Shown in pieces: positions 22,712 through 64,000 of a stretch of 64,000 nucleotides of DNA (its first letter is position 1; every line of letters begins with the position of its first letter). This DNA is from an uncultured virus (IMG/VR IMGVR_UViG_3300012954_000006). Its lineage: Duplodnaviria > Heunggongvirae > Uroviricota > Caudoviricetes. The notes under the pieces are model-generated. The model was not told the origin of the DNA. It saw nothing but the letters and a program-made list of their open reading frames with translations, and did no database searches. Where the stretch lies: the IMG/VR virus record IMGVR_UViG_3300012954_000006; one strand, written 5' to 3'. The position numbers were made by a program, and so were the translations under genes.

Positions 22712-23797
22712 TTAATGACTACATAATTTATGCCGAAATACATTTGGTTGGTCTAAAAAGACATATCCAAAACTATTGATAATATCTGCTTTTGCTATAC
22801 TAAGTATATCATTACCTATGATACCTGTAATATAAGTGCCGTCTAACAACTCATCGTACTGCCCAAATATACCCCCATCTTTATCAAAAATCATCATATC
22901 GCAGCTAAAGGTGTCTGATGTTTCATTAAAGGCAATTTCAAAACTACAATATCGAGCATCCTCTTCTTGCCCATCTAACCCCATATATGTTGCACTACTA
23001 AAGTATCGTCCTTTTTGAGGTTGGTGGCGTAACAAGCTAGGCAAAGCTTCTTGATTAATCATAGAGGCTGTAGCTCCTGTATCTATCACAAACCACCTTT
23101 TTTTGCCTTCTATGTTAATTCTTATAATAGGATGGAAAGAGTCACTTGATATATCGTCTTCTAGTAATGGCAAATGATAGCTAATCGGTATAACTATTCT
23201 ATCTTTTGTCAAGGCAGGGGCGTTTAGCCCTACATAGTCACAAAGCACTCTTTCATAGATTTTTTGGTCTTGTGTGGAGGCTATTGTAGCATATCCTCTG
23301 TGATAGGCTTCTCTTAATATCGTTTCATCTGTAAGGTAGCAATCTAGCAAGGTCGCTTTTTGTGGCACTAAAGTATCTACAATATCCATGATACGTCTAG
23401 CTAATGACAACGGCAGTTCTCGCCTACGGTCACGGACTATACTGTCTGTTTCTAAATACCACTCTTTTGAAATATTATCTATTGCTAAGTAGGAGTAGAT
23501 GTATATATTTCTTATCACTCCTTGAAAGTGCCACTTAAAAACCGTTACATAATCATAATCGTGTACTAAATGGCTAGGCTGTATAGTAAATGACTGACCT
23601 TCTTCGCCTATAATAATAACGGTGTCAGCCTCCATATCTAAAAGGGATTGTGCTATGACTTCTGTATAAACATCTAATTCATCTTTGGTACTAGGTAGCA
23701 TAGTTACAATAGCACTCAACTGTAATGCGTTTACAATAGCGAAATTCAATATCGACTCAGGCGTATCTGGAATAATTATCTTATCACAATATATCAT
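22712..23797 (-). CDS. Degenerate DNA methyltransferase-like domain fused to retropepsin-like aspartyl protease
   Basis: C-term FVIDTGATAS and GIIGNDIL. N-half LPLSLARRIM..ATLLDCYLTDETILREA..GY mirrors FPxxLxxRLI..VLDPFxGSGTTxxAA..GR without the SAM motif. Confidence 0.7.
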   Translation of the reverse strand: MIYCDKIIIPDTPESILNFAIVNALQLSAIVTMLPSTKDELDVYTEVIAQSLLDMEADTVIIIGEEGQSFTIQPSHLVHDYDYVTVFKWHFQGVIRNIYIYSYLAIDNISKEWYLETDSIVRDRRRELPLSLARRIMDIVDTLVPQKATLLDCYLTDETILREAYHRGYATIASTQDQKIYERVLCDYVGLNAPALTKDRIVIPISYHLPLLEDDISSDSFHPIIRINIEGKKRWFVIDTGATASMINQEALPSLLRHQPQKGRYFSSATYMGLDGQEEDARYCSFEIAFNETSDTFSCDMMIFDKDGGIFGQYDELLDGTYITGIIGNDILSIAKADIINSFGYVFLDQPNVFRHKLCSH

Positions 23798-23824
23798 TTA
23801 CTTATTTTTATTCTATAACTAAGG

Positions 23825-23940
23825 CAAAAATAGTGTTTTTTTTTGGTTTTTACAAATAGTCTATTTTCTCGTAAATAACAAAAAGTTTCGCTTGTCTTAA
23901 TGGTGTTTATTTTGCGATGTTATAGATATAGCTATATTTG
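23825..23940. promoter_or_regulatory. Divergent promoter pair
   Basis: Minus-strand box 23825-23832 and plus-strand TATATTTG 23933-23940. Confidence 0.7.
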
Positions 23941-23971
23941 CTTAATTTAATTTAACAAATAAATAGATTTA

Positions 23972-24391
23972 ATGAATACTTCACAAAAGACAAGAGGTCA
24001 GAAATGCAATAGCGAAAAACTAGAACTAATATTAAATGTTCTAAAACAGATAGATACCTCGATTGTCGATGATAAAGGTTGACATATAGGAGTGCCACAG
24101 TCGAGATATGATAAGTTGGTACACAAAGCAGTTTTGCTTGACCAAGTATTTAAAATAGCCTTTGATAGTGAGCAAGTACAAAAAGTGGTTTCTAATAATG
24201 TGAATATTGAGCCTGAAATTGAGCAGGTTTGGCGAAAACGAGGATGTTATAAATTTGAAGTAAGAACCAATGAGCAAGTAGCGGAAATAAAAAATAATAT
24301 TGAGATGTATGAATATATAACACATCAGGCTCATGCAGAAGGGGATTTTGGCTACCTTTGTAGTTCTAGGTGGTGTAGGTGCCGCCAATAG
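23972..24391 (+). pseudogene. Hypothetical gene with in-frame TGA at 24080-24082
   Basis: ATG 23972 after promoter is in frame with ORF 24092-24391 (DDKG*HIGVPQ). Confidence 0.6.
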
Positions 24392-24402
24392 CACTCTTAA
24401 AT

Positions 24403-24454: not shown

Positions 24455-24477
24455 TTGAAACTGTTTTATAGTATAAT

Positions 24478-28682: not shown

Positions 28683-30098
28683 TTAAAATATAGGTTTGTT
28701 ATTTAATAATAATATCGAATAATCATTTACTACACCTACTGAAATTTGGTTCAATTGCTCAACTGTTATAGGTGTTTTCGGGCATTTATCTAATAACTCA
28801 AAATTATTGCTTGAAGTTTCTCTACACTCAAAAAATAGTAATTCTTCTTTATTGCCATTCTTCCAGTTTCTATAATGCAATATTAATATGTCTTGAAAGC
28901 GATAAATACGCTTTACATCATCCAGTCGAAAACCAACTATTTGGTCGCCACTTATCATATTCCATGTACTGTCACTTCCTTGCTTACAGATAAATAGCCA
29001 TTTATTTATTTTCCAAAGGTACTGGTTATTGCCAATGTACCTTAAACAATCATAACTAGGTTCGGTTCGGAAAGATATATGCCTTAGTATGTCTCTACTA
29101 AAAGTATAATTACTAAAGTTTAAGCCTCGTCTTTGGCAAAGCCAATGATAAGCAAATCGCCATTCTCCATTTGCATTGACATAGCAGACATTCAAATAAC
29201 CTTCATTGTTAGATAATCGTTCAAGGTAGGCACTTTTTAATATCTTACCATCTTTACTGTATATCTCTACTAAATCTTCTGTTGTAACTTTATTTAGTCC
29301 AATAGTCACTAATTTAATACTCGTTTCAGTATGCAATAAAAGATAGGTAAAACCTTTTTGCGTATGCTCTTTCAACTCCTTGTATGGTTCTACGCTATAT
29401 AGCTTAGTTAATGTATTATTTGATGTAATATGATAATACTCTTCTGGGTAGTAATGACCTAGTCGAACTACATTGCCATCTAAAACAGTAATAGATGTGT
29501 TATCAATGTTTTTGAGTTGCAATAATGGCTTTTTAGCATCACTCCCCCATAATTGACGTACTGTACTATTATCATGTGTCCGATGATAACTCAAATTGAC
29601 ATAAGGCTTGTTGTCACTCAAATAATAGTGTTTGCTTGACGCTGACTTTGATAGGTATTTATCAGCAGGCAAGTCATTTTCAAATAACTCCCCATCATGC
29701 ACTTCAAAAAGGTTTTGATACTCCTCTTTACAAGGTATAATTTCCGCTAACACATATTTACCATGTATCTCAATATGTCGAATATTGCTACATTGAACAG
29801 CAGTCAAAAATTTGCCAAAATCAACGACATGGAGTTTGCTATTTTTATAGTGCAGCAAATAGGCATTACCTTCATGTTTATCAAGCCCTAACCTAACAAC
29901 AAGGTAGTTATTGCGTTGCTCGACATGAATATTAAAGCCTAATGAGTAGTTTTTGTAATCAAAGATTTTTTTAATAGCTTTAGTTGCTAATAAATTTTTA
30001 GGTGTTGTTAGTTTCTGCCAAAAACTTCTATTGTCTTGGCGTGCCTCTACTGCAACAATGCCATTTGCAGCATTGTAAATTTTGAATAAGTTTTTCAT
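28683..30098 (-). CDS. Hypothetical beta-rich protein
   Basis: 471-aa ORF. Confidence 0.7.
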   Translation of the reverse strand: MKNLFKIYNAANGIVAVEARQDNRSFWQKLTTPKNLLATKAIKKIFDYKNYSLGFNIHVEQRNNYLVVRLGLDKHEGNAYLLHYKNSKLHVVDFGKFLTAVQCSNIRHIEIHGKYVLAEIIPCKEEYQNLFEVHDGELFENDLPADKYLSKSASSKHYYLSDNKPYVNLSYHRTHDNSTVRQLWGSDAKKPLLQLKNIDNTSITVLDGNVVRLGHYYPEEYYHITSNNTLTKLYSVEPYKELKEHTQKGFTYLLLHTETSIKLVTIGLNKVTTEDLVEIYSKDGKILKSAYLERLSNNEGYLNVCYVNANGEWRFAYHWLCQRRGLNFSNYTFSRDILRHISFRTEPSYDCLRYIGNNQYLWKINKWLFICKQGSDSTWNMISGDQIVGFRLDDVKRIYRFQDILILHYRNWKNGNKEELLFFECRETSSNNFELLDKCPKTPITVEQLNQISVGVVNDYSILLLNNKPIF

Positions 30099-30101: not shown

Positions 30102-30599
30102 TTATTTAAGATTTAAGCGGTCAAATAATAGTTTCTTTAATGCCTGCACACTACCTTCTTCGTTTATGTCGCAAAACACTGTTATCATGCCAAAATGTCT
30201 TTTCATTATGGCATCTATCGCATCATCAGGCAAATCATCTATTCGTTTACCATTTAGTTCTTTCCAGTATTCCAATCCTTCTAAAGCAAACTTCTTTGTT
30301 AGAAAGTCATATATAGCCATCAGTTGATTACTGCCATTGATAGCTTGGTAGGAAGCATAATCTTGTTCATAAAAATAAACTGGTGGTATTGGTATGTTCA
30401 AAATCAAAGATTCGATAAGTCTTGATTTTTGAATATTATTCCAACGTGTTTGCGATTCAAACTCGGAATACAATATATGTTTCTTCTTACCTTTATATGT
30501 ACTGTCTAGTTTTTCAACAAATTCATGTAAATGGAAGTATCCTCGACACACAATGAGCCGATTTTTTCGATATTTTTTATAGAACTCTGTATCTGTCAT
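30102..30599 (-). CDS. DUF262 (ParB-like, GmrS/NsnA-type) domain protein with degenerate DGQQR motif
   Basis: W..QKSRLIESLILNIPIPPVYF then INGSNQL where IDGxQRL is expected. Confidence 0.8.
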   Translation of the reverse strand: MTDTEFYKKYRKNRLIVCRGYFHLHEFVEKLDSTYKGKKKHILYSEFESQTRWNNIQKSRLIESLILNIPIPPVYFYEQDYASYQAINGSNQLMAIYDFLTKKFALEGLEYWKELNGKRIDDLPDDAIDAIMKRHFGMITVFCDINEEGSVQALKKLLFDRLNLK

Positions 30600-30600
30600 T

Positions 30601-30807
30601 TTATTTTTTTGAGTTATTGAAATATTCCTTATTAGGTGAGTTAGGTATTTTGGCATTAGCTATCATTTCCAAATAACTTTCATATTGCCTTATAATATCT
30701 TCTAGCCTATCTAGTTCGCCTAATACTATTTTGGCTACGTTGTCATCGTTTAACATTTGAAGCAACTCACCTTTTTGTCTTAACGTTAGAAATACTGTCT
30801 TTTTCAT
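30601..30807 (-). CDS. Hypothetical protein
   Basis: 68-aa ORF. Confidence 0.5.
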   Translation of the reverse strand: MKKTVFLTLRQKGELLQMLNDDNVAKIVLGELDRLEDIIRQYESYLEMIANAKIPNSPNKEYFNNSKK

Positions 30808-30821: not shown

Positions 30822-31412
30822 TTAAATACTTACAATTGAAAACATCAGATACAATCGCTCATAAATTTCTTCCCACAAATCGTCACTATCTTGTATCATT
30901 TCTTTTGATAATAAAAAGTCATAAATCATATCTCGCAAATTATAAAAATCACTTATAAGCACTTCTTTTTGAAGTATTTTGTCAAAATAAAAGTACACCA
31001 AAATATTATTTAGCCTAAGTACATATATATCTTCTGGCAGTTCCCAATGTGACAAATGAGTTGGTTGGTTTGCATGAGTCATTAAAAGAACGTCCATTAA
31101 ATTAATATTAGCATCTAAAGGATATTGTGCTTTTTGTTCGTGAGTAGATAGGTTAGGTATGTTTATAGCATACACAGGTTTACTATCATGGCAAGCAATT
31201 TTAATGTTTTGGCGTTCTGCTTGATTAAAGTTTCTTGGTATATAGTGCAATGTATAAAGCAGACTATCTGCTATCTGACGTTTTGCACTCTCATCTTTTT
31301 CAATACATTTGTTGAAACTCATTAAATACTGACTAAAATCCCAATTAGATATATCAGTAATAGCTAATATACGGTTGATAATGTTTTGTTGTACGGCTTT
31401 GTATGAAACCAT
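30822..31412 (-). CDS. Hypothetical protein (start corrected to MVSYKA)
   Basis: Promoter box at 31440-31447. Confidence 0.65.
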   Translation of the reverse strand: MVSYKAVQQNIINRILAITDISNWDFSQYLMSFNKCIEKDESAKRQIADSLLYTLHYIPRNFNQAERQNIKIACHDSKPVYAINIPNLSTHEQKAQYPLDANINLMDVLLMTHANQPTHLSHWELPEDIYVLRLNNILVYFYFDKILQKEVLISDFYNLRDMIYDFLLSKEMIQDSDDLWEEIYERLYLMFSIVSI

Positions 31413-31439
31413 GTTTTTGTATTTTATTTTAACGATATA

Positions 31440-31501
31440 CAAAGATAATGTTTTTTTTGATTTTTTCACATTTTTTGATAGTTTTATTTTTCGTATCTTT
31501 G
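31440..31501. promoter_or_regulatory. Divergent promoter pair (TATCTTTG on both strands)
   Basis: Minus 31440-31447; plus 31494-31501. Confidence 0.75.
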
Positions 31502-31512
31502 CTAGAAAAACA

Positions 31513-32919
31513 ATGATAGGCAATACTTATGAAATTAAAAAGGTAGGTAGCAGGTATGTTTATCCTAGAATAAATCAACAAAACAGTATCATTACTTACT
31601 TGCTGTACTTTAAAGAAACGCCTAATACAGTTTATATAGGCATTAGTAAGTCTTTAATGATAAGAATTTCACAGCACATTTCAAGTGTTAAGAGAAATAT
31701 AAAGAAAAATAAAACGCTGTCCTCAAAAGAGGAATGGTTGCACACCAACCTACAAGAGGCTATACTTATAGTAAAGGTTTTGAATTTAAATATCAACATC
31801 GAAAAGGCTCGAAAGGATGAAAAGCAAAAAATAGAACAACATATTAAGAGAGGGTACGAATTGGTAAATGGTAATAATGGAGGAGCTTATTATGACCACG
31901 ATAAGCCTGTATGTCAATACAACAAAGACGGTATGTTTATTAATAAGTACCCATCAATATTATCAGCATCATTAGCAGTAAATATATCAGCAAGTGCTAT
32001 TTCAAAGGCCTGTAGTTGCCCTACTAGAATAAGTGCTAAGTATTATTGGCGGAGAAATTATTTTGAGCAAATAAATGTATCTAAAAAGATAAGTAAAGGA
32101 CAAGTAATAAGTGTCTATTCATTAAATGGCAAAAGAATACAAACATTTACTGATATTAATGCAATATCTAAATTTTTACAATGTCACAAGACAAATGTTT
32201 ACTCCGCTATTGCTAATAGGAATGCATGCAAAGGGTATTTGATTAATTATGGGACTCGAGACAATATTGCAGTAAGTACAAAGTTAAGACGAAGACGAGG
32301 AGGACGTATCGCTTCCTACGAACTTAATGGTAAGTTAAATAATATTTATCAAAACATAAAAGATGCTAGTGAATCTGTAAATGTTAGTTGTCATGCAATC
32401 AATCAAGCCATCAGAGGCTATCGAACGGCAGGCTCGTTACAATGGCGAAGGCATTTAAAAGAGGAGGATGTTGTAAGCAAAATACCTGCTATCAATACTT
32501 ATAAAACAATACCTGTATATTCTTACTGCAAAAAAGGCATTTTTGTTTGCAGTTATGAAAGTGTTAGTGGTGCTGCTACTGCTTCAAATACTTGCGTGAG
32601 TGCCATCAGCAGGGCTTTAGATAAAGGAAAATTAGCTGCTGGCTATCAATGGAGTAAACGAAAAAAGAATGCTATCAAACCATATAGCAGACGAAAGACT
32701 TACTTTGCTTATCATAAAGATGGTTGCTATATAATGTCTTTTGATAGTCCTAAAAGAATAAATGCTTTTTTTTCAAGGGAAAGAGCTATTAGCAGCGTTC
32801 GTAATGCTATAAAAACTAAAACAATGGCTTATGGCTTCCAATGGCGTTTATTTAAAACAGAGAATATTGAGCCTTACAAAAGAAAAGGCAGAAGTAATGC
32901 ACAGAAGGCTATAACTTAA
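31513..32919 (+). CDS. GIY-YIG homing endonuclease with multiple NUMOD1 repeats (start corrected)
   Basis: ITYLL..VYIGIS..RISQH..E; about five K.VxxYxxxG.FIxxYxSIxxA..I..A..AxGYxW repeats. Confidence 0.85.
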   Translation: MIGNTYEIKKVGSRYVYPRINQQNSIITYLLYFKETPNTVYIGISKSLMIRISQHISSVKRNIKKNKTLSSKEEWLHTNLQEAILIVKVLNLNINIEKARKDEKQKIEQHIKRGYELVNGNNGGAYYDHDKPVCQYNKDGMFINKYPSILSASLAVNISASAISKACSCPTRISAKYYWRRNYFEQINVSKKISKGQVISVYSLNGKRIQTFTDINAISKFLQCHKTNVYSAIANRNACKGYLINYGTRDNIAVSTKLRRRRGGRIASYELNGKLNNIYQNIKDASESVNVSCHAINQAIRGYRTAGSLQWRRHLKEEDVVSKIPAINTYKTIPVYSYCKKGIFVCSYESVSGAATASNTCVSAISRALDKGKLAAGYQWSKRKKNAIKPYSRRKTYFAYHKDGCYIMSFDSPKRINAFFSRERAISSVRNAIKTKTMAYGFQWRLFKTENIEPYKRKGRSNAQKAIT

Positions 32920-32961: not shown

Positions 32962-35190
32962 CTAGAACAAAGCCGCTTGTGCTTGCATTGCTACTGCATT
33001 GTTGCAGTTTTTGATAGCTGTTTCGTAATACTTATCTTTGAGTTCGATGCCGATACCTTTTCTGCCCAGCTTCACACTTTCATACACTTCACTTCCAATT
33101 CCTAGAAATGGCGTAAAAACAGTTTCGCCTACGTTGCTCCACATTTGCACACACTTTCTGATGACAGATAGCTGTAATGGTGCAATATGCTTTTCATCAC
33201 CTAATGCAGTACCTTCTCTATTATTTAGTACGTCTGTTCTTTTAATATCCATCCATGTCTGTTGCTTAAACCCTTTTAAGATATTATTGTAATGCTCTAC
33301 ATCTTTAGGCTCGACATTCCACACAGGACTTGCCCATCTTTGCCACGTCTCTAATGGGAAGTTGTCTGTATTTTTGTTGTTTACAGGTGTCCATGATTTC
33401 TCATCCCCTTCCCACTTTCTAAATACTGTACAATACTCTGGCAATCCTACTCCAGTATAGGTACTATCTTTTCTTAGTTGCTTATATAACAGCCTTTGCG
33501 TTTTTGTTCTTTGCATTTCAAGTATGGGGTCTGTCCAAATGTTGATTTTAGAATGGTACTTAAACCCTGCTTCCTGCACACTTCTTGAATGGTCTGCTGT
33601 AAAGTCATACAATCCAGAGTAGCCACTTGAATTTTTATATACTGCCAAATCCTTAGTGTGACAAACCATCAGCCTGCCAGGCCGTAGTATTCGATATAGC
33701 TCCTTTAAAAGAAATCCGTACTGCACAAAAAACTCCTCATGGCTATCATTATTCCCCATATCATGGATATAGTTAGAATAAGTAAATAGAGAACTAAACG
33801 GCGGAGAGTAAATTATCAAATCTACACTATTATCAGGCACTCTTTTTATCTCTATTGTAGAGTCGCCTTTCATCAAATGAAAATCCTTTGTTTTAAATTC
33901 AGCGAAATCATAACTATCTAACAAGCCAAATTTATCCCCATTGATAAACTTATTCATTTCTGACTGCATTTCATTAAATTGAGCTTGCTTACGCTCAATA
34001 GACCTTACTACATTTTCCATAGTATCTGTTGTTATTATGTGAATATTTACATCATTGATTTGCCCAAATCTGTATGAGCGTCTTATAGCTTGGTATAACC
34101 CTTCAAAAGAAAAGTCTAAAGCACAAAATATTTGATTGTAGCAATTTTGGTAATTGAGTCCAAATTGTGCTATCTTCTTTTTGGTAATTAATACTCTAAA
34201 TTCATTTTTTGCAAACCCTAGCAGTTTGGCTTTCTTGACATCTGCCTTTTCCGAACCTGTTACAACTTTAGCGTCTGGGATTAACTTTAAAAGTAGTTTT
34301 TCCTCTGCATTTTGATTAACCCATACGATATATTGCTTATCGTCTGAATTGGCAATATCAGCCGCTAATTGACACCTATCTACTAAGGTTCGCTTTAACT
34401 CCCTATTGAAAGATGTTGCATTGACATTCCCCTCATTGAATAGCAATCCATTATCTCTACGCTTGGTAATCACTTGATGCTCATGGTAAATTAATTGCGG
34501 TAACACATAAGCATCGCCACAATACCCTATATCACTTGGGTTAGAAACCATCATTGCCCATGAGCTAATCCAGCCGTAAAAATCACGTTTTGCATGACCT
34601 TTTAGCCTGTAATTATTCATGCCTTCGTCTCGCACAAACCATTTGGCTCTCATGTCTTGAGCATCTAAGACACCTAAAAACTCTGAATGATTACCTATTT
34701 CATTCAAGTCATTTGGACTTGGTGTAGCAGTACAGGCTAGTTTGTATTCCGTGTCAGCGAACAACTCAATGATGAGCCGCTTATATTTGCCTGTAAAATT
34801 CTTTAAAATAGAACTCTCATCTAAAACTACACCGCTATAAATGGATACATCTATATTGTGAAGTTGCTCATAATTGGTAATATCAACATTGGATATGTCA
34901 ATATTGAACTTGCAAGCCTCTATTATTGTTTGCTCAGTTACTGCCAGAGGTGCTAATATCAGGACTCTACCTTTCGTGTGTTTGGCTACTTGATTAGCCC
35001 ACTCTAGCTGCATAAATGTCTTTCCTAGTCCGCAATCCATGAATAGTGCAAATCTCCCTTTAGATAATGCAGTCTTTACAGCATGTTTTTGCCAGTCAAA
35101 CAGCAAGGGATTTAGTAGGGGGAGGGGTATATCAAATCCGCTATGGATGTGACGTTTTGTTTTAGTTTCTAAAAATTCATTATAATTCAT
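32962..35190 (-). CDS. SNF2-type helicase fused to N4/N6 DNA methyltransferase
   Basis: DCGLGKT, LDESSILK, TATPSPND, QAIRRSYRFGQ; then YSPPF and TPFLGIGSE. Confidence 0.9.
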   Translation of the reverse strand: MNYNEFLETKTKRHIHSGFDIPLPLLNPLLFDWQKHAVKTALSKGRFALFMDCGLGKTFMQLEWANQVAKHTKGRVLILAPLAVTEQTIIEACKFNIDISNVDITNYEQLHNIDVSIYSGVVLDESSILKNFTGKYKRLIIELFADTEYKLACTATPSPNDLNEIGNHSEFLGVLDAQDMRAKWFVRDEGMNNYRLKGHAKRDFYGWISSWAMMVSNPSDIGYCGDAYVLPQLIYHEHQVITKRRDNGLLFNEGNVNATSFNRELKRTLVDRCQLAADIANSDDKQYIVWVNQNAEEKLLLKLIPDAKVVTGSEKADVKKAKLLGFAKNEFRVLITKKKIAQFGLNYQNCYNQIFCALDFSFEGLYQAIRRSYRFGQINDVNIHIITTDTMENVVRSIERKQAQFNEMQSEMNKFINGDKFGLLDSYDFAEFKTKDFHLMKGDSTIEIKRVPDNSVDLIIYSPPFSSLFTYSNYIHDMGNNDSHEEFFVQYGFLLKELYRILRPGRLMVCHTKDLAVYKNSSGYSGLYDFTADHSRSVQEAGFKYHSKINIWTDPILEMQRTKTQRLLYKQLRKDSTYTGVGLPEYCTVFRKWEGDEKSWTPVNNKNTDNFPLETWQRWASPVWNVEPKDVEHYNNILKGFKQQTWMDIKRTDVLNNREGTALGDEKHIAPLQLSVIRKCVQMWSNVGETVFTPFLGIGSEVYESVKLGRKGIGIELKDKYYETAIKNCNNAVAMQAQAALF

Positions 35191-36316: not shown

Positions 36317-36667
36317 TCATTTCTTTAAATAACTATTTTCTGATGGTAGGTAATATTTTGGCACATTCTCAAATGCAACAAAACGACTGCGAATTATATT
36401 GTCGTTAATATCTTTCGATACAACAAAAATACCTATGGCATCGTTCAGTACCTGCAAATACGATATTTTACCATCAACAAAGTGTTGCAGTATTTTTAAA
36501 TCAACAATACTATGTAAGTATGTTAGTATGTTTTCTTCTATATTATCTTCCGCTAAAGATACTATGATGTTTTGCCCTATTCTGTTTTTGCCACTCCATA
36601 AAACAGGCTGCTCATCAAAATGCAATACTTGTTTGTTTCTCGTAATGCTATATATTGGACTGTTCAT
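36317..36667 (-). CDS. Hypothetical protein (DUF6575-like)
   Basis: DxPxL..N..G..F..G.I..YLP.....L pattern. Confidence 0.55.
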   Translation of the reverse strand: MNSPIYSITRNKQVLHFDEQPVLWSGKNRIGQNIIVSLAEDNIEENILTYLHSIVDLKILQHFVDGKISYLQVLNDAIGIFVVSKDINDNIIRSRFVAFENVPKYYLPSENSYLKK

Positions 36668-39811: not shown

Positions 39812-40585
39812 ATGATTAAAAACATTTCTGAAACAATCAGCGAAATAATGCAACAAGTGTGCAGTATCAAACATAATATAGATATTTCTGTAAAGTCACA
39901 ACACGAAAAAGACCCTTTGATGCTTGGCTTTACCTTTGGAACAATATACTCTGCTGCCCATAGATGCGAAAAGAAGCTAACAGAGCTTAACAAGCTGTTA
40001 GGACAGCCAAAAACAATAAGAAAAGACGATGCCTTATAGCTGTGTAAAGACTATGGCATCAAAGAAGTTTGGTTTAACTATTTTGAATTGACCAACTTGC
40101 CAGAAGATGTGGTTTGGAATGTTATGCTTAACATTGAAAATGGCATAATCGGTGTGAGTACAGGTTTGATGGCATACACTCACTATCAAGGCAATTATTA
40201 TATCGGGTCTTACGAAGAAATCAATTCAAAACTTCCTGATTTGGTTGAAGTGATTTTAGCATTTGGACTACTAAATAATCTTACTGAACACAAGAGTTTT
40301 ATTACCTACCATTATGGAGTTGCAGGGCATCTTACTGTCGATAGTATGCTTAGAAAGAACTCTGGTAGCTTTAAAATAGAATATATTAAACGACCAAATA
40401 CAAATAAATTGGATTTTATTCATTCGATACAATCAGATTTACAATCAGGCAAGTGGCATTTTTTGAAAAACAATAAGTCACTTGGCAACATAATCAATCA
40501 ATTAACTAACTATCCTCATGTTGAAAATGACAAGACTGCTATGTCTTTGGCATTGATACACGAGTTTGTTAGTAATCATCAATAA
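39812..40585 (+). CDS. Helical N-domain plus inactive terminase nuclease-like domain, interrupted by in-frame TAG 40037-40039
   Basis: ORFs 39812-40039 and 40088-40585 share a frame (DAL*LCKDYGIKEVWFNYF). NK..I..LQSGK..IINQLTNYP..END mirrors TerL C-terminal DK..R..IESG..F..E..FPxxxHDD without the acidic residues. Confidence 0.6.
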
Positions 40586-40603
40586 TACAATAAAATACAC
40601 AAA

Positions 40604-41224
40604 ATGGACAAATCAAGAAAAACAGATGGTGCTGCTGCCATTTTAGATTATCTAGGTGATGCGAAAGTTATGCTATCAGAGATAGCAAAGGTAGCTGACA
40701 CTCCTCCAGTAATGGCTTTTACATTGGGGCGAATTTATGAGCTTATTAGAGACGCACAAGCAATAGCAACAGACTTATATCACAAGAATGAAATAGCTGC
40801 AAGCAATGAAGTGACAACAGACAACTCTGTATCTAAAACATCGTCTAAGTTTACCAAAGAAGGGAAACTCAAATATTATTTTGATGTTCGTACAATTGAG
40901 CAAGGACATCATTATCAAGTACCACAATATCAACTTGCAGGACTTGATAGCACCGAAATACTGGAAAGCTTGCCATCACAACCGCTTGATATAAAGTTTG
41001 TTCGAGGTAGTGTGTCAAAAGATGACAACACTCTACCAAAGACTGGCACTTTGCACGAACATTTATTAGTAGTAATGATACAAGACTTGCGGTATAAAAA
41101 TGCGCTAGTACCATCTACACAAACAACTATGGTTATTCAAAAGTTAGAGGAGGCATACGACTTAATTTTAGAGCGTAAAAGCGATAGAACCAATCGTGGA
41201 GTACTTGGAACTTATGAAAAATAG
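40604..41224 (+). CDS. tad1: Tad1-like cyclic-nucleotide sponge (anti-Thoeris/CBASS) with N-terminal extension
   Basis: HHY..IKFVRG..G..E.LL.V.I..L....PS......KLEEA......R..DR..RGVLGT matches recalled Tad1 family. Confidence 0.75.
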   Translation: MDKSRKTDGAAAILDYLGDAKVMLSEIAKVADTPPVMAFTLGRIYELIRDAQAIATDLYHKNEIAASNEVTTDNSVSKTSSKFTKEGKLKYYFDVRTIEQGHHYQVPQYQLAGLDSTEILESLPSQPLDIKFVRGSVSKDDNTLPKTGTLHEHLLVVMIQDLRYKNALVPSTQTTMVIQKLEEAYDLILERKSDRTNRGVLGTYEK

Positions 41225-41228
41225 TGAC

Positions 41229-41282
41229 TTTGCGTAGCATCACTTTCAACTATATTTATGGTTACTACTGATGCTACGCAAA
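41229..41282. repeat. ~55-bp palindromic element, copy 2 (inverted)
   Basis: TTTGCGTAGCATCA..TGATGCTACGCAAA. Confidence 0.8.
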
Positions 41283-41380
41283 AAAGCAGTTTCCGAAACC
41301 TCATAAGTGGAAGGAAAAGAGGGCGTAGTGGTTCGTCCAACAAACAAAAGCTTGTGAATCTACTTAGCAAACCATCGTTT
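41283..41380 (+). ncRNA. Candidate structured RNA motif, copy A
   Basis: AAAGCAGTTTCCGAAA..AGAGGGCGTAGTGGTTCGTCCAACAA..TTGT; recurs at 42372, 60381, 61226. Confidence 0.55.
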
Positions 41381-41416
41381 CTTCGCCGACTGAAAATCCT
41401 AAAAGCAAACTTAAAT

Positions 41417-42395: not shown

Positions 42396-42469
42396 GTGGA
42401 GGAAATAGAGAATGTAGTGATTCATCCATCAAGGTGTACACCTTGTAAATAATAAGCATCACAACTGCA
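42372..42469 (+). ncRNA. Candidate structured RNA motif, copy B
   Basis: Same motif; stem CAAGGT-GTAC-ACCTTG replaces ACAAGT-GAAA-GCTTGT. Confidence 0.55.
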
Positions 42470-42499
42470 AACGTTATTTTTGAAAGAACATAATACAGT

Positions 42500-46894: not shown

Positions 46895-47485
46895 TTATAA
46901 CTCACGACATATTATACTTGACGCACGCCCACCTAAACAGGCTAACTTAGCCTTAATTACATCAAAATCTGATAAGCCGCCATATACCATTTTTCTAGGA
47001 ATAGTAGGGTCATGTTTCGCCTCCTCTTCATAGTAGTGCAACAACTGATAGAATTGCTACATAAGTATTTCGGTATCTACACTAAAAGCATTGATAAAAC
47101 TATTCCCCAATAGCACCGACTGTATTTCGCTTAAATCCCAACCAACAGGTACGGTTTTATACTGCTCATTATTATTCTCTTCATAGAGTGCTGCTCCTTC
47201 AAAAGACTGCAAGATATAAGGGTCAGCAGTAATCACATCTACCTGTTCGATACTACCTTTCTTGTTTTGGATTGCTAACAGCATATCTTTTACTTTACGC
47301 CTGTTAGCAACTCTTAAATAGTGTTCTGGAAAATATAATACAAAATGCTTTCTATTGCAACGACTGCCATTTCGTATATAATGCAATAAATCCAACTGTG
47401 AAGCACTTGCTAGTTCTTCATTGTGTCTTACATCAATATATAAATTTGCGAAGTCACAATGCTTTATTTCTACTGTTATTTTCAT
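46895..47485 (-). CDS. Degenerate C-terminal half of PtuA/AAA_21-like ABC ATPase, with in-frame TAG 47057-47059
   Basis: VLYFPEHYLR..QVDVITADPYILQS..GWDLSEIQSVLLG mirrors IDEPExHLHP..QFIxTTHSPxILS..GWxxxEIL..MG; frame stays open 53 codons past TAG. Confidence 0.5.
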
Positions 47486-49597: not shown

Positions 49598-51661
49598 CTA
49601 TTTATCAATACCAAGTAATTGATAAAAATCTTGCTCATTAATAATCTTGACACTAGAAATACGTTGTGCTTTAGCAAGTTTAGAACCTGCTTTTTCGCCT
49701 GCCACCAAATAGTTTAGTTTTTTACTAACGCCACTCAATACCTTTCCGCCGTACTCTTTGACTAGCTTTGTCGCATCACTTCGCTTCATGGTTTCAAACC
49801 TTCCTGTAAACAAAAATGTCTTTCCTTCTAACAGGCTGTTGGCATCTGCCTTTACAGGTTCATCTTTCCATGTCTGCACACCATAAGATTGTAGCCGTGC
49901 TATCATATCACGATTTATTCCTCTATCAAAGTAATCAAAAATTTGCTGTGCTTTCTTTTCGCCCACCTTATCAATGGCTTGCAAATCAGCTACTGACATC
50001 TTATACAACTCCTCAATACTATTGATTTGCTCAACTAAAGCAGTTGCAATAGTACGTCCTATGTCTTTGATACCTAAACCAATAATTAGATTTTTCAAAG
50101 GCATTCTTTTAGAACGCTCAATATTTGCTTTCATCTTCTCTACGGAACGTTCTCCAAAGCCACTAAGGTTCATTACGCTGTCATAGTCTATATTGTAGAT
50201 GTCTGGAATATTTTTTATAATACCTGCCATATACAACTGCTTAACAGTCTCTTCGCCCAAGCCTACAATATTCATAGCTTTTTTAGATGTGAAAGCTATC
50301 AATTGACCCATTAGCTGGTCATCACAACTAGCATTATCACAACGCCATACACTCTCGTCATCCCATCTAAAAATAGGTTTTTGACAGCAAGGGCAGTTAT
50401 CTGGAAATCTTACCGCTCGTTCTGTGCCATCTCGTTTACTTTTATCTACGGACACGATATAAGGTATAACATCGCCTGCTCGCTCCAATAGTACAGAGTC
50501 GCCATAATGAATATCTTTGTCAAGCATAAAATCTTCATTATGTAAAGAAGCTCTAGTGATAGTTGTACCACCTAAGTTTATCGCTTTCAAATGAGCTACT
50601 GGCGTTACAATACCTGTTTTGCCTACTTGAAAAACAACATCTTCTAGTGTTGTATAGGCACGTTGAGCGTCAAACTTTAACGCTATCGCCCATCGTGGAT
50701 GATGAGATGTGCTACCTAGTTGCTGCTGCTGTTCTGCTTGATTAACCTTAATGACTAGTCCATCTATCTCATAAGGATATTGCTCTCTTTTAGATTGCCA
50801 TGATTCACACACGTTAAGTACTTCATAGATGTTTTTGCAGATGATAGGCTCATGAGTAGGAGTAGTAAATCCTAAGTTACGCAACAACTCTTGTTTCTGT
50901 TCTTGTGTATCTGTTAAAGGTGTACTTTCAATATCGCAAACATCGTATATCACAGCAGATAATTTACGTTCTGCTACCTTTGCACTATCTTTCTGACGTA
51001 ATGCACCAGATGCTGCATTTCTAGCATTAGATAGTCCTAGTTTACCTAATGTGGCAAAATCAGACTTTGAAATCAGCACCTCTCCCCGCACAACAATTCG
51101 TGGCAAGTTATATATGAAAGCGGGAACGTGCGTAGGTACATCTTTAACTGAAACGGTATTATCAGTCACGTTATCCCCCACATGCCCGTCGCCACGCGTG
51201 AGTGCCATTACTAGCCTATCATCTTCATATATCAGCTCTATGGCAATACCATCCAACTTAGGAGCTAGTTCGTAAGTAACATTTGAGACCTCTAATACTT
51301 TGCGATTGCGTCTATCCCAGTCTAGTAAGTCTTTGTGTGTATATGCTTTGTCTAGCGAAAGCATAGGGCTAGGGTGTTTTACCTTGTCAAAAACTCGGTC
51401 ACTACTAGCATAACCTACCGTTTGTGTAGGTGACGTAATAGATGTGTGTTGAGGATATACCTCCTCTAGTTCTTTTAGATAATCAAACAATTGGTCATAT
51501 ATGGCATCTGAAACATCTGATGTAGCCCTTTCGTAATACATCAGATTGTGATAATTGATAGCCTGCACCAATAGTGCCATACGCTCTTTAGCATTCGTAC
51601 TATTGGTGGAATTGTGCTGTCTCCACGACAGCGCTTCTTGTGTTAATGTTTTCGTTTCCAA
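49598..51661 (-). CDS. ligA: NAD-dependent DNA ligase
   Basis: HPSPMLSL, KLDG, TRGDG, RNAASG, YEIDGLVIK, HhH, BRCT (AGSKLAKA). Confidence 0.97.
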   Translation of the reverse strand: METKTLTQEALSWRQHNSTNSTNAKERMALLVQAINYHNLMYYERATSDVSDAIYDQLFDYLKELEEVYPQHTSITSPTQTVGYASSDRVFDKVKHPSPMLSLDKAYTHKDLLDWDRRNRKVLEVSNVTYELAPKLDGIAIELIYEDDRLVMALTRGDGHVGDNVTDNTVSVKDVPTHVPAFIYNLPRIVVRGEVLISKSDFATLGKLGLSNARNAASGALRQKDSAKVAERKLSAVIYDVCDIESTPLTDTQEQKQELLRNLGFTTPTHEPIICKNIYEVLNVCESWQSKREQYPYEIDGLVIKVNQAEQQQQLGSTSHHPRWAIALKFDAQRAYTTLEDVVFQVGKTGIVTPVAHLKAINLGGTTITRASLHNEDFMLDKDIHYGDSVLLERAGDVIPYIVSVDKSKRDGTERAVRFPDNCPCCQKPIFRWDDESVWRCDNASCDDQLMGQLIAFTSKKAMNIVGLGEETVKQLYMAGIIKNIPDIYNIDYDSVMNLSGFGERSVEKMKANIERSKRMPLKNLIIGLGIKDIGRTIATALVEQINSIEELYKMSVADLQAIDKVGEKKAQQIFDYFDRGINRDMIARLQSYGVQTWKDEPVKADANSLLEGKTFLFTGRFETMKRSDATKLVKEYGGKVLSGVSKKLNYLVAGEKAGSKLAKAQRISSVKIINEQDFYQLLGIDK

Positions 51662-60558: not shown

Positions 60559-61095
60559 ATGCCTTCTAAAAAAGACATCGCAGAATACTGGAAAAACAAC
60601 ATGCCATACAACGAAATGGAATTAAACTTTGATTGGGCAGATGCTGAATTTTGCTGCTGGAATTGTGGAGAAGATAAAAGGCGTAAGGAGCGTGCAAATC
60701 GTTATGACTTAGCAAGATTAGAGAGATGTCATATTCAACCAAAACAGTTTAAAGGAAGTAATGACCCTAGTAATTTTGTTTTATTATGCAAGCAATGTCA
60801 CTCTCAAGCACCCAATTACAATTCTCTAAATGCAAGTAAATATTTTTGGGAATGGATAAAATCCAATAAAGTCATGTTTCCGCTTTCCAATTCTTATAAT
60901 TTTTCAAAAGGATTAGAGATGTTTGAATATGTTAGAGAAGTAGATTTTTTATATTTTATACAAGAGCATAATATTGACTTTTCTTTAATCCAGCAAAAAA
61001 TTAAAAACATCGGCACGCATGGTGCAACATTTAATCCATCAACTTACTTTGCTATGTTTTGTGATATTTACGACAATCATGTCAAGACAATATAA
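60559..61095 (+). CDS. HNH endonuclease
   Basis: CWNCG..LERCHIQP..GSNDPSNFVLLCKQCH. Confidence 0.85.
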   Translation: MPSKKDIAEYWKNNMPYNEMELNFDWADAEFCCWNCGEDKRRKERANRYDLARLERCHIQPKQFKGSNDPSNFVLLCKQCHSQAPNYNSLNASKYFWEWIKSNKVMFPLSNSYNFSKGLEMFEYVREVDFLYFIQEHNIDFSLIQQKIKNIGTHGATFNPSTYFAMFCDIYDNHVKTI

Positions 61096-61320: not shown

Positions 61321-61790
61321 ATAGCATCAATATCATTATCAAATAAACGTTCTATTTCATCAAGAAATACTACACTCTTGTCTATCATATCCATAGTAAA
61401 AGACCTTAATGTTGTCTTTCTAGTATTTTTTAAAGGTTTTATAAATTCTCCATTGCAATTACAAATATAACATTCTCTACACGAACCTGTACCACTTGCT
61501 ATTTTCAAAAACAATTCGCCTTCATAGTAAACATTTCCTGTTTTGCGATTATGTGTTTTTTCAAATGTCAGCTTCTTCTTATCCACGACGGACAACATCT
61601 TACAAATAGCTTCTTTTTCTTTGAGCCATGCTTTAATGTGTTTTACCAATACCCAATCACGAGGGAAGCTTCTAAATGGCAGATGATAACCCATAAATAC
61701 AAGATTATTGTGTTTATAAGTGCCTATTAACTCATTTTTCCAATAGATATTAGCTTCATACATTTCTGGTTTTTCTACTCTCATTCTCAT
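61314..61790 (-). CDS. Hypothetical protein
   Basis: 158-aa ORF; promoter 61834-61841. Confidence 0.65.
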   Translation of the reverse strand: MRMRVEKPEMYEANIYWKNELIGTYKHNNLVFMGYHLPFRSFPRDWVLVKHIKAWLKEKEAICKMLSVVDKKKLTFEKTHNRKTGNVYYEGELFLKIASGTGSCRECYICNCNGEFIKPLKNTRKTTLRSFTMDMIDKSVVFLDEIERLFDNDIDAIQ

Positions 61791-61879
61791 ATGTATTTTT
61801 TTAATGTTAAATTAATGCTTAAAATACAACATGCAAATATACAAAAAACATTTTACATAGCAGCTAAAGCGTCTTTTAC

Positions 61880-61927
61880 TTCTGTGTTCTATTTATAGAA
61901 CGCTTGTTCTACTTTTAGAACACAGAA
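61880..61927. repeat. Tandem TTCTA-N4-TAGAA element, copy 3
   Basis: TTCTGTGTTCTATTTATAGAA-CGCTTG-TTCTACTTTTAGAACACAGAA. Confidence 0.8.
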
Positions 61928-61932
61928 AATGA

Positions 61933-64000
61933 TTAAGTTAAAATGGCATCCAACAAAACCCTTTCATTAAGTATTCGTTCTTCCAGTTTATTCAAGTAAC
62001 TCAAAACGGCTGACATTATCTTCACTCGTGCTGTGGTACTATGACAAAATCTCATTAAATCATTAGCATCATCAATTAAAAGATACCCTTGAATAGTGAT
62101 GTTTACATTACCTAAATAAGCATTCTCACTAAACAACTGCTTTGAACTCCTAATACTGGGAAAGTATTTTTTTAGATAGCAGAACTCATAAATACTACCT
62201 TTGCGTGTTTTGTTTTTTGCTGTTAAAAAGACAAAAGGTATTTCTTGAAACAAATCCTTAACAGTAGTTTTGAAACGCCTAAACACTAAATTATCTTCTT
62301 CAATACAGTCTATTGTCTGCTCACTCAAAACGTCCTCAATATTAATTTCATCCTTGCCAAAAGTCACGACGATAGCCTCCTCCGCTTTGTATGTCTCAAA
62401 GGTTCGGAATTTTCTTTTTGTATGAGCTTTTCTTTTCTGCTTTGGCTTACCTAGTTGTTTACTGACATTAATCTCGCCTAATACGATGTCCTTTTGTGCT
62501 ATCTCTTTCTTTAACTCTGCCACATAAGACCTGTTATTGTTGCAATAATAATAAAAGGATTCCAATACTTGTAATTCTTTTTGTGCTACTTCATCAAAAT
62601 GTCTTTTTCGTGATAGGTGGTCTTGATAGGTAAAAGGATAGTATCTTACACCACGCCCAATAAGCTGTACTTCTGAAACGGTACTAGCTGCGACTTTCTT
62701 TGACTTAGATACGGTCTTTTTCTCATTGTTATACAACATCACAATATCGTACAGGTTCTGCACGTCCCACCCTTCTGTCAATCGCTTACAGGTAAACACC
62801 GCAGTAATATGGTTGTGTGGCTGCTCTAAACTATTCAACATAGCATCTTGTTCAGCAGTAGTTTTTTCTTTGCCTACCTTAGTCTTTATATAGCGAAGCT
62901 TTGAATGCGTCCGAATACAATTACTAGCATCAAACCTTGCCTGTGCAAATACTAACAAGTCTTGAAAGCCATCTTTGCTGCCAAGCAAATGATGTAATGC
63001 GTCGAAAAGTTTATTCTTACCTTTGACATATCTTTGCTTATTATATCCTAAGCTCTTCAAAAAAGCAAAGCTTTTTACATTTAGTTGGCTAATGGTTTCA
63101 ACAAACAAGTGATAGTCACTTTCTATGTTATCCGTTGGATGTGTTTTCATTTCGACATACTTGCTACGAAACAATATGATTGGTTTAAATTGATTAATGC
63201 CATGCTGCTCTGCTAGTCGCACTCGATACCAATTCATCAATAATGCTAGTAACATTCGTTCCCTTTTAGCTAAGTTGTTGCTCATTAGATGTACGGTTTT
63301 GGTATATCCATCTAACATAAACCGCTTCATGTCGTACTTGTAAAATACTTTGTCAGCATACTTCGCCACGACTTGCTTGTGCTTAGGGATAGTCGCTGTT
63401 AATTCTAGCAGCACGTTATTGTTTTGACTAGCACCGTTTTTGCGTAATAACATTTCGCATATTGTGTATTCCCAACTTTTATTGATACTGTCCCTGCTCG
63501 CATTGTTTTTTAGTAAATCTAGTGTACTGTTAGTCTTTTTAGTAATAGTATTAAAGTGATGAGCTTCATCTGCTAGTATCACTAAGTTCAAAGCCTGTAA
63601 TTCTTCTAGCGAGTTACTATTCTCTCTAGCAGCATGAATCTCGTTATGCAGTTTATGAATGGATGTTATCCGAATTTCCATGTCATCTGTATTGGTATCA
63701 AAATAATCTACATGACTAATATTTACCTGCTTACCATCTACATAGACATCCTTAAATAAGGCTTTGTCATAAGCATATTCAGATACCGCTAGATTGCCTT
63801 TCGTTTTTTCTAGTATGTTTTTTTGATTAGAGATAAACAGAAAGTGGCGATACCCTTGTTTGTAATAGTATAGCATCATACATGCCATCATTAAGGTTTT
63901 GCCTCCACCTGTGGCAATATTACAAAGCAAATGCGTTGGCGTATTGTATTGATGTATGTGTTGTTGATAGGCGAGAAAGTGGAGGAGGCAATCCTCTTGG
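61933..64000 (-). CDS. Type III restriction Res-like DEAH helicase, 5'-partial, apparently lacking C-terminal nuclease
   Basis: ATGGGKT, ADEAHH, LTAT, LTEGWDV.NLYDIV, QLIGRG; frame open to window edge; no PD..ExK motif before stop. Confidence 0.8.
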   Translation of the reverse strand, partial: QEDCLLHFLAYQQHIHQYNTPTHLLCNIATGGGKTLMMACMMLYYYKQGYRHFLFISNQKNILEKTKGNLAVSEYAYDKALFKDVYVDGKQVNISHVDYFDTNTDDMEIRITSIHKLHNEIHAARENSNSLEELQALNLVILADEAHHFNTITKKTNSTLDLLKNNASRDSINKSWEYTICEMLLRKNGASQNNNVLLELTATIPKHKQVVAKYADKVFYKYDMKRFMLDGYTKTVHLMSNNLAKRERMLLALLMNWYRVRLAEQHGINQFKPIILFRSKYVEMKTHPTDNIESDYHLFVETISQLNVKSFAFLKSLGYNKQRYVKGKNKLFDALHHLLGSKDGFQDLLVFAQARFDASNCIRTHSKLRYIKTKVGKEKTTAEQDAMLNSLEQPHNHITAVFTCKRLTEGWDVQNLYDIVMLYNNEKKTVSKSKKVAASTVSEVQLIGRGVRYYPFTYQDHLSRKRHFDEVAQKELQVLESFYYYCNNNRSYVAELKKEIAQKDIVLGEINVSKQLGKPKQKRKAHTKRKFRTFETYKAEEAIVVTFGKDEINIEDVLSEQTIDCIEEDNLVFRRFKTTVKDLFQEIPFVFLTAKNKTRKGSIYEFCYLKKYFPSIRSSKQLFSENAYLGNVNITIQGYLLIDDANDLMRFCHSTTARVKIMSAVLSYLNKLEERILNERVLLDAILT

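Follow-up and report, generated by a model that had tools for sequence, protein, structure and literature searches.

Menshen and PD-T4-2 are anti-phage defence systems whose mechanisms are still largely predicted. Li et al. 2025 (PMC12065111) describe for ParB-DUF262 domains the same three motifs as used below, QRxxxW (motif I), DGxQR (motif II) and FxxxN (motif III), and regard DGxQR as the predicted nucleotide-binding centre. The same source gives an EN-containing Walker B motif and a GxG motif as the hallmarks of the Menshen subunit NsnB and presents AlphaFold3 models in which NsnB tetramerises and paired DUF3696 tails clamp the inPIN domain of NsnC in 23 of 24 systems. PD-T4-2 is listed in a table of a review (PMC10952713) as a combination of DUF262 with a PF18735 HEPN protein, and a passage of the 2013 HEPN survey (PMC3710099) mentions a "Ribo L-PSP-HEPN ... 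operon with ParB". For CRISPR-Cas, two preprints describe viral homologues of cas genes whose assembled complexes are defective (Katz et al., bioRxiv 10.1101/2023.06.24.545427) and, for AcrIB4, a "complex subunit poisoning" (bioRxiv 10.1101/2025.06.06.658234). Here we analyse a stretch of 64,000 nucleotides (the window) of the uncultured caudoviricete record IMGVR_UViG_3300012954_000006 (IMG/VR), which carries a DUF262-like gene, an NsnB-like gene and a gene related to the Res subunit of type III restriction-modification (R-M) systems (Table 1).

An original prediction on this DNA had claimed at least five catalytically dead homologues of defence proteins, captured by the phage and kept as decoys or poison subunits. 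The description applies to two of them, the DUF262-like and the NsnB-like protein; the Res-like protein lost its nuclease only, and the alleged DNA methyltransferase (MTase) and PtuA-like ATPase half were misidentified. The notion of captured defence subunits thus stands with respect to the protein families and to the catalytic losses of two of the five genes, while the five-gene arsenal was overstated. Homology, the exact losses of motifs and domains, intact reading frames and a selective retention of the scaffold in the DUF262-like protein are directly visible, and the sequences support a set of two true pseudo-enzymes and one domain-deleted enzyme, which would derive from defence modules common as temperate-phage cargo.

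The DUF262-like protein and the origin of its gene

The DUF262-like protein of 184 residues is matched by the PADLOC models NsnA (1.2e-27, profile positions 34-184 of 385) and PD-T4-2_A (3.8e-07), by phrog_2598 (4e-25) and by our own hidden Markov model (HMM; 1.3e-43). The Pfam family PF03235 (GmrSD_N) reached 26.5 bits, below its gathering cut-off of 33.2. The protein was aligned with 43 diverse homologues, of which 26 are collection proteins, 8 are encoded in genome loci and 9 in viral loci, and 29 columns were found to be at least 80% conserved within the portion that it covers. It kept 22 of these columns. The seven changed ones (P64S, Q67E, R68S, V105A, D107N, Q110N and R111Q) are all located within or directly beside motifs I and II. 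Motif I reads E-S-Q-T-R-W, with Q67 replaced by Glu and R68 by Ser but W72 kept, and motif II reads NGSNQ (..AINGSNQL..) at a site where D, Q and R are invariant in all 43 homologues, which confirms the predicted change from DGxQR to NGSNQ. Motif III is preserved as F178-D-R-L-N182. Outside motifs I and II and their flanks none of the 20 conserved columns is changed, versus seven of nine within them (Fisher's exact test, p 2.3e-5 for this broad motif grouping and p 0.016 for the three published motifs only). An intact scaffold next to a dismantled nucleotide pocket points to a retained non-catalytic protein, and the pattern of losses argues for such a protein rather than for random decay.

The polypeptide ends with ..FDRLNLK, two residues past motif III, where full-length relatives go on with ..RLNSGG.. 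for ca. 200 residues. For instance, P0007 (396 residues) is 39% identical over residues 6-182 in BLASTP and continues with ..FERLNSGGDKL... The six frames of the window contain no match to the missing C-terminal ParBDB half, which binds DNA, and the same holds for a HEPN partner (best E 0.29). A DUF1524 HNH domain is absent from the protein and found no match among the 53 open reading frames (ORFs) between 22 and 64 kb scanned against Pfam, PHROGs, PADLOC and NCBIfam. The 471-residue ORF immediately downstream was considered as a continuation or partner of the DUF262-like protein and is unrelated. Five DUF262-only ORFs in IMG/VR (L114, L117, L125, L127 and L128) are equally short, with 170-192 residues and the motif intact, and two short collection proteins, P0002 and P0003, likewise end directly after motif III. 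As the end point is shared with other short DUF262 proteins, it looks like the boundary of a usable domain and less like the result of a chance truncation.

In 69 IMG/VR loci retrieved with the DUF262 alignment, 68 ORFs matched our HMM and DGxQR was present in 67 of the 67 with an N-domain; among the DUF262 sequences compared, the window copy is, judged by its motifs, the only one with the pocket lost entirely. A 147-residue DUF262-only protein with the same end point is encoded by the Microcoleus phage My-WqHQDG (163-kb record; L062:2441-2884). Its motifs are partly altered, TPR standing for FQR and DGHWR for DGxQR, and it may be a second phage domain-only DUF262 protein drifting from the binding of nucleoside triphosphates (NTP). 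In a set of 5.8 billion clustered proteins the sole close match to the window protein was the protein itself, the next best being 40% identical. Longer relatives of 360-508 residues are cellular DUF262 proteins, with those of cyanobacteria on top, and share 37-41% identity with the 184-residue protein in their N-terminal half (39% for cellular proteins of 375-408 residues).

The gene neighbourhoods of the closest relatives indicate the type of module from which the gene would come. Within 32 genome loci, the DUF262 protein was called NsnA by PADLOC in the three scanned (up to 3e-70), and the PD-T4-2_A model matches relatives at 2e-36. The gene directly downstream, however, does not encode NsnB but a protein of 319-374 residues with a RiboL-PSP-HEPN domain according to Pfam in five of five cases tested, and our HMM found this HEPN partner in 25 of the 32 loci. 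Another 20 loci in IMG/VR pair a DUF262 gene with the HEPN partner, and in a Vibrio temperate phage the pair adjoins the cI repressor gene (L061:2815-5086). Locus L035 differs in having a PtuA/AriA-like ATPase and an AriB-like gene. The DUF262 gene of the window is therefore best described, on the grounds of similarity and of this gene order, as the putative sensor N-domain of a PD-T4-2-like DUF262-HEPN module. A derivation from GmrSD or Menshen, as formerly assumed, is not upheld, given the pairing with RiboL-PSP HEPN proteins in the majority of the loci. A common origin of the DUF262-like and NsnB-like genes from one Menshen operon was rejected for the same reason, L035 being the only locus with a neighbouring ABC ATPase and this being PtuA/AriA-like. 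The predicted complex between a cyanobacterial HEPN partner and the phage DUF262-like protein attained a score of 0.26, set against a mark of 0.32, and speaks neither for nor against an interaction.

The module as such deserves a remark. It consists of a DUF262 protein of 340-445 residues, NsnA in PADLOC terms, followed by the RiboL-PSP HEPN protein (L004-L035, L061 and L063-L105). None of the cellular HEPN partner genes matches the PADLOC model PD-T4-2_B at E<=0.001, so that the label "PD-T4-2-like" is based on domain content and not on a curated model. Since the HEPN partner has no match to any PADLOC model at that threshold, automatic annotation would mislabel these modules as orphan Menshen NsnA.

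The NsnB-like and Res-like proteins

The NsnB-like protein of 251 residues matches the PADLOC model NsnB (2.7e-13) with residues 146-250 on profile positions 234-342 of 345, and exceeds the cut-off of Pfam DUF3696 slightly (23.3 bits versus 22). An own HMM built from 14 relatives places the whole protein at positions 110-343 (80.7 bits); positions 1-110, which contain the P-loop region, have no counterpart in the six frames of the window. An exhaustive phmmer search over 1.84 billion representatives yielded 124 proteins with E<=0.001, of which only the protein itself fell below 1e-30, the best other match (1.3e-10) showing 35% identity over the C-terminal 117 residues. The relatives have 300-450 residues and match the Pfam families AAA_15, AAA_21 and DUF3696 in three of three tested cases. 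Compared with them, the phage protein is ca. 90-110 residues shorter at the P-loop region: the N-terminal strands MIKEIEVELKTL are present, and the subsequent block with the P-loop (Walker A, GxxxxGKS) is deleted. Walker B is altered from ENPEAHLHP to DKPTVFLPE (LLDKPT in place of IENPE), the GxG motif is lost (KDAYI in place of VGFGL), the H-loop is changed from ETHSDH to FVESSH, and the Arg of the YxSAxRxGP loop is replaced by Ser. The alignment thus substantiates the claimed DUF3696 ATPase without Walker A and with an eroded Walker B and H-loop.

The C-terminal DUF3696 segment DRNGRMSEVPDGMFDEF..LL is conserved. In this tail, six of seven conserved columns are kept (G230, P236, G238, F240, D241 and L250) and the seventh shows a conservative exchange of Phe for Met. 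In the alignment with 90 homologues, 49 columns are at least 80% conserved; 9 of them are deleted in the N-terminal part, 22 are changed and 18 kept. Because DUF3696 is predicted to hold NsnC, the portion kept by the phage protein corresponds to the predicted effector-holding portion. An AlphaFold2 model calculated from a 61-row alignment has a predicted local distance difference test score (pLDDT) of 78.1 and a predicted template modelling score (pTM) of 0.76. Its top neighbour in Foldseek is PtuA from E. coli (8sux, E 4.7e-5), together with SMC, cohesin and Rad50 heads, at template modelling (TM) scores of only 0.35-0.45, as expected of a partial head. The protein is accordingly still predicted to form an ABC head by the model. 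A sequence search against solved structures gave only a weak match to the Walker B stretch of Rad50 (E 0.67). An ORF of 83 residues upstream of the gene was considered as the missing P-loop segment and dismissed, as it is unlike one by eye and has no match to our HMM.

The 25 NsnB relatives in IMG/VR are all full-length and contain ENPE, and Walker A is present in 24. An NsnA-like gene lies directly upstream in 22 of these 25 loci, and two of the three exceptions start at the locus edge. As the IMG/VR relatives of both small proteins keep their motifs, the dead state is not the norm of either family. The argument for the retention of a non-catalytic protein is weaker for the NsnB-like than for the DUF262-like protein and relies on the open frame, the confidently predicted fold and the preserved tail.

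The Res-like protein, whose reading frame enters from beyond the window edge, is matched by the PADLOC model REase_III (6.3e-73, profile positions 69-640 of 873) and by phrog_16, annotated as "DNA helicase". It preserves the helicase motifs I, II, III and VI (GGGKT, DEAH, TAT and QLIGRGVR, the last conforming to QxxGRGxR). A tblastn search retrieved 225 records of the plasmid collection, 176 of which cover at least 80% of the query. In the two plasmid records opened, "DEAD/DEAH box helicases" of 867 and 876 residues are encoded downstream of site-specific DNA methyltransferase genes and thus represent Mod-Res pairs. Residues 43-671 of the plasmid Res proteins align to window positions 63978-61987 with 30-31% identity over ca. 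630 residues; for residues 672 to the end tblastn found no match within the window. The C-terminal endonuclease domain of ca. 195 residues is absent from the ORF, and the homologues carry, past the stop point of the phage protein, a ..PDF..(x)..EPKG.. sequence, which we take to be the PD..ExK block of type III Res. The ca. 45 N-terminal residues and any Mod gene fall outside the window. The protein is probably an active translocase that lost its nuclease by domain deletion. Hence the former verdict on the type III Res was correct regarding the absent nuclease, and "catalytically dead" is wrong for it because the helicase motifs are intact.

The Res-like protein is most similar, with 43% identity over 514 amino acids (residues 19-532), to a stretch of the Neisseria gonorrhoeae chromosome records H17/H18. 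This stretch has no listed gene in the table of the plasmid collection and may represent a pseudogene or an annotation gap. One truncated Res-like match comes from a Lactobacillus phage, where it adjoins a transposase. Relatives were not detected in the scans of viral and metagenome contigs, and a sequence search against solved structures gave nothing at E<=0.01.

Genomic setting, coding state and other genes of the window

According to a protein collection record, the phage contig has a length of 192,865 bp, so that ca. 129 kb lie beyond the window. The window has a content of guanine plus cytosine (GC) of ca. 0.30-0.40 and is densely packed with ORFs, the majority on the minus strand. No tRNA genes were seen in it. 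Its DNA is present in one sequencing run labelled as marine metagenome, which may be its source; RNA runs are not listed. The phage collection contains no match to the window at the DNA level, and LigA shows at best <=38% identity to phage records. A 51-nt word taken at the window edge has no exact counterpart in the viral or metagenome contigs. The neighbours of the candidates are replication and accessory genes such as those for LigA, the SNF2-MTase fusion and a phosphoesterase.

Table 1. Features of the window with their positions, strands and the basis of their assignment.
Feature	Position	Strand	Basis or remark
Head-maturation protease	17744-18706		phage hallmark
Baseplate-hub-like protein; SSB			phage hallmarks
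T5orf172/MUG113 duplicate-domain gene	22010-22702	-	homing-endonuclease type
361-aa protein, residues ~191-355 retropepsin-like aspartic protease	22712..23797	-	Pfam RVP, structure neighbours
471-aa ORF	28683-30098	-	starts 3 nt after DUF262-like gene
Stand-alone ParB-DUF262 domain protein, 184 aa (PD-T4-2_A / NsnA-type sensor N-domain)	30102..30656	-	profiles, alignment
GIY-YIG + NUMOD1 repeats	31375-32919	+	homing-endonuclease type; strand opposite to neighbours
SNF2 helicase-N6/N4 DNA methyltransferase fusion, motifs present	32962..35190	-	profiles; intact control
116-aa ORF	36317-36667	-	weak PADLOC match
726-aa ORF	37402-39582	-	
Terminase-large-subunit-like ORF	42500-43411	+	PHROGs profiles
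142-aa ORF, guessed candidate for "PtuA-like half"	47057..47485	-	by-eye likeness to ABC ATPase C-terminal half
NAD-dependent DNA ligase LigA, intact	49598..51661	-	profiles and translation; control
NsnB-type ABC-ATPase pseudo-enzyme, 251 aa	57470..58225	-	profiles, alignment, AlphaFold2, Foldseek
HNH gene	60559-61095	+	homing-endonuclease type; strand opposite to neighbours; 0.8 kb downstream of Res-like gene
Type III Res-like SF2 helicase, at least 688 aa	61933..64000	-	profile, tblastn, alignment; 5' end beyond window

The coding state of the candidate genes was evaluated with a codon model for which 27 other window genes served as the training set. Frame 1 of the candidate ORFs is positive, with 0.10-0.18 bits per codon compared to a window mean of 0.24 and to 0.06-0.27 for other small ORFs. 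Their GC content of 31-36% is phage-like. Open frames of 184 and 251 codons in DNA of 33% GC have chance probabilities of ca. 6e-7 and ca. 4e-9, respectively, in a simple composition model. Genes are tightly packed: the TGA codon of the NsnB-like gene overlaps the next ATG, and a gap of 3 nt follows the DUF262-like gene. An alternative code with read-through of TGA was rejected, since DDLPF-TGA-TAA closes the SSB ORF and the end of the NsnB-like ORF coincides with that of its family. Around the DUF262-like and NsnB-like genes, scans for promoters and terminators yielded counts that did not differ from those of shuffled sequences. The statement that housekeeping enzymes of the same window retain their motifs holds for LigA (KxDG) and the SNF2-MTase fusion (GKT, DESS, SPPF and FLGIG), as judged by eye from the translations; the fusion likely serves self-methylation.

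The 361-residue protein, whose gene opens the stretch covered by the original prediction and which is presumably the one taken for a dead DNA MTase, contains as its only recognised domain a retropepsin-like protease with an intact DTG motif (VIDTGAT at residues 238-244; Pfam RVP, 26.0 bits versus a cut-off of 20.7). Its Atlas feature and structure neighbours are aspartyl proteases, several of them from phages, with TM scores by target of 0.67-0.78 over residues 191-355, to be read as a lead only. No MTase match emerged in Pfam or NCBIfam, the PADLOC model MTase_II gave just 17.6 bits (E 3.6e-4), and similarity to the window's own MTase was not found. Nor was a relative present in the 5.8 billion clustered proteins; the sequence search of the PDB returned chance-level matches, and a single-sequence AlphaFold2 model (pLDDT 35.6) is unusable for fold assignment. 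A faint by-eye likeness of residues 148-181 to the motif I region of beta-class MTases is no more than an impression. The protease gene, with its fused N-terminal region of ca. 190 residues, is located between the T5orf172 endonuclease gene and a block of ORFs that lack an assignment.

As for the PtuA-like ATPase half, none of the 53 ORFs matches any PtuA model at E<=0.01, which leaves this member of the arsenal unsupported. The 142-residue ORF was taken as a guess at the ORF that had been meant, and it has no match in Pfam, PHROGs, PADLOC, NCBIfam, the PDB, the Atlas or the NsnB profile; its Atlas model is poor (pLDDT 0.40), with uninformative matches. The alternative is the split terminase-like ORF, which matches phrog_4758 (2.4e-15) and, with residues 9-101, phrog_38 (1.6e-10) and sits on a small plus-strand island (40088-43958) within the minus-strand genome. 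It is interrupted by an in-frame TGA at 42848-42850, behind which the same frame runs on for 186 codons (17, and then an ORF of 169 codons at 42902-43411) before it breaks up. This continuation holds a ..YLVMDD.. sequence with the looks of a Walker B motif. The gene may be split, decayed or recoded.

Three more ORFs were noted. Those of 471 and 726 residues are matchless in the four profile sets. The ORF of 116 residues matches PADLOC PD-T4-10_B weakly (4.3e-6), with residues 54-115 on profile positions 60-121 of 353, and Pfam DUF6575 below threshold (E 0.039, 13.8 bits versus a cut-off of 26.6); on this thin evidence it could be a further partial relative of a defence protein.

Possible roles and comparison with described systems

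The following scenario might account for the findings. The phage contig would carry subunits of mobile anti-phage modules in derived, non-catalytic form: a domain-only ParB-DUF262 "sensor" of a DUF262+RiboL-PSP-HEPN module, in which NTP binding and hydrolysis would be gone and the DNA-binding half lost; an ABC ATPase of the Menshen NsnB type, stripped of all ATPase motifs but with the DUF3696 tail kept; and a type III Res translocase devoid of its nuclease. Each of them might still dock on the partner or ligand of its active cousin, i.e. on the HEPN or NsnC effector, on NsnB oligomers or on Mod. As these complexes would neither be switched on nor cut, they would be dead ends that blunt the host system by subunit poisoning or effector sequestration. 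Expression, binding, an effect on defence and the kind of host are what we infer here. We consider such a decoy or poisoning role of captured dead subunits as plausible and assign to it a probability of roughly 35%. The fuller version, in which a virulent marine phage maintains several pseudo-enzyme mimics, each of them poisoning another host system, with the DUF262 sensor acting on a PD-T4-2-like system, the NsnB-like protein sequestering NsnC or capping NsnB tetramers and the Res-like protein occupying a host Mod, appears quite unlikely.

Several observations weigh against a poisoning role. Of the five members claimed, two have no homology to defence proteins, and the candidate genes are spread across 40 kb and unclustered. 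In the sets searched, the DUF262-like, the NsnB-like and the 361-residue protein each stand alone as the sole sequence of their kind; lacking close relatives, they offer neither conservation across phages nor a ratio of non-synonymous to synonymous substitutions. The codon-model scores of the candidates are at the low end of the window genes, yet inside the range of small ORFs. The motif definition behind p 2.3e-5 was picked after the data had been seen, and the DGxQR count of 67/67 is biased since one of the two scan patterns demanded this motif. In the NsnB-like protein the middle is heavily eroded, with 22 of 40 aligned conserved columns changed, and the retention of the C-terminal part is borderline (12 of 19 columns kept from residue 165 onward versus 6 of 21 before; p 0.055).

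Two other explanations, decaying remnants somewhat ahead of a role unrelated to defence, are nearly as likely as poisoning or sequestration, each of them being doubtful when taken alone. The phage or an ancestor might once have borne mobile defence modules (DUF262+HEPN, Menshen and type III R-M), of which functionless fragments now await deletion. Sources for them abound, as intact DUF262+HEPN pairs (the 20 IMG/VR loci) and nsnA-nsnB pairs (22 of the 25 NsnB loci) are common on viral and proviral contigs and also occur in the Vibrio temperate phage, and the mix found here matches the 27.9% of Menshen operons that adjoin BREX, type I/III R-M or methylase genes according to Li et al. (PMC12065111). 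Each of the three genes is truncated and lacks a partner within the window, the dead forms are devoid of close relatives anywhere in the sets searched, and strong erosion has affected the ATPase core of the NsnB-like protein. However, the frames stayed open despite a divergence of >60% in AT-rich DNA, and a uniform neutral decay would not produce a DUF262 pattern in which 0 of 20 scaffold columns but 7 of 9 motif and flank columns are changed. It would also have to cope with a truncation point common to other short DUF262 proteins, with the lack of frameshifted leftovers of the missing domains in all six frames and with a Res-like protein whose helicase motifs are all intact. An exaptation to a phage function would turn the Res-like protein into a superfamily 2 translocase for replication, recombination or packaging and the ParB-like and ABC-like scaffolds into adaptors for DNA or protein binding. 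It agrees with the intact ATPase of the Res-like protein, of which only the nuclease is missing, and with its match to phrog_16; with the short motif-intact DUF262-only proteins on large viral contigs, which imply some role in phages; and with the position of the candidates among replication and accessory genes. Yet all three proteins have their nearest relatives in defence operons and not among housekeeping proteins, the loss of the NTP pocket abolishes the sole known activity of ParB-DUF262 domains, and no phage process is known that needs an ATPase-dead NsnB.

It is improbable that the three proteins belong to a still functional system of the phage for defence or superinfection exclusion, with its catalytic partners in the ca. 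129 kb outside the window, even though only a third of the contig is covered (64 kb of 192,865 bp) and the position expected for Mod, upstream of Res, lies past the window edge. The predicted inability of the sensor to bind NTP and the absence of a P-loop from the ATPase concern activities required by the known systems; according to the review (PMC10952713), mutation or deletion of the DUF262 gene abolishes defence by Menshen and Dazbog. Furthermore, the genes are dispersed and not arranged like an operon.

If the poisoning role proved true, these proteins would represent the first inhibitors of Menshen and PD-T4-2 to be described and would extend the principle of viral cas genes to defences other than CRISPR. 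Our literature search found no phage counter-measure or inhibitor directed against Menshen or PD-T4-2-type DUF262-HEPN systems, and the terms "decoy", "truncated", "prophage" and "anti-defense" do not occur in Li et al. 2025 (PMC12065111). Two natural subunit copies with dead motifs and intact scaffold are ready-made probes. Inhibitory copies would reveal the key surface, that is, the DUF3696 tail placed on NsnC in the models in the case of NsnB and the ParB-DUF262 core minus the NTP pocket in the case of the sensor, and would show that anti-defence proteins can generally arise from captured and inactivated defence genes, as is known for cas genes. Inert copies would document the decay of mobile defence modules inside lytic phage genomes.

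Compared with the described systems, the 184-residue protein resembles the DUF262 N-half of PD-T4-2-type modules and matches PD-T4-2_A, but the window copy is confined to the N-domain, motifs I and II are lost from it, and no HEPN gene adjoins it. With GmrSD, BrxU and SspE, in which DUF262 is fused to a DUF1524 HNH domain, it shares the ParB-DUF262 fold family, whose active members have the three motifs; as it lacks DUF1524 and its nearest relatives are not of the GmrSD type, this label holds at the superfamily level only. It differs from Menshen NsnA by the missing ParBDB C-domain and by the fact that nsnB and nsnC do not follow, the NsnB-like gene being located 27 kb away. The NsnB-like protein is related to Menshen NsnB by its best PADLOC match, the conserved DUF3696 tail and the ABC head fold of the model, and its relatives show the EN Walker B and GxG motifs and sit downstream of NsnA-like genes. 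In contrast, the window protein has no Walker A, DK instead of EN, no GxG and a replaced H-loop His, and its gene has neither an NsnA nor an NsnC neighbour. The Res-like protein shares the alignment of ca. 630 residues and all helicase motifs with type III Res of the plasmid Mod-Res pairs but not their C-terminal PD..ExK endonuclease block. The cas-derived anti-CRISPRs and AcrIB4, which were established by experiment and concern CRISPR-Cas, embody the same idea, in which a mobile element carries a relative of a defence subunit that joins or blocks the complex and thereby renders it defective.

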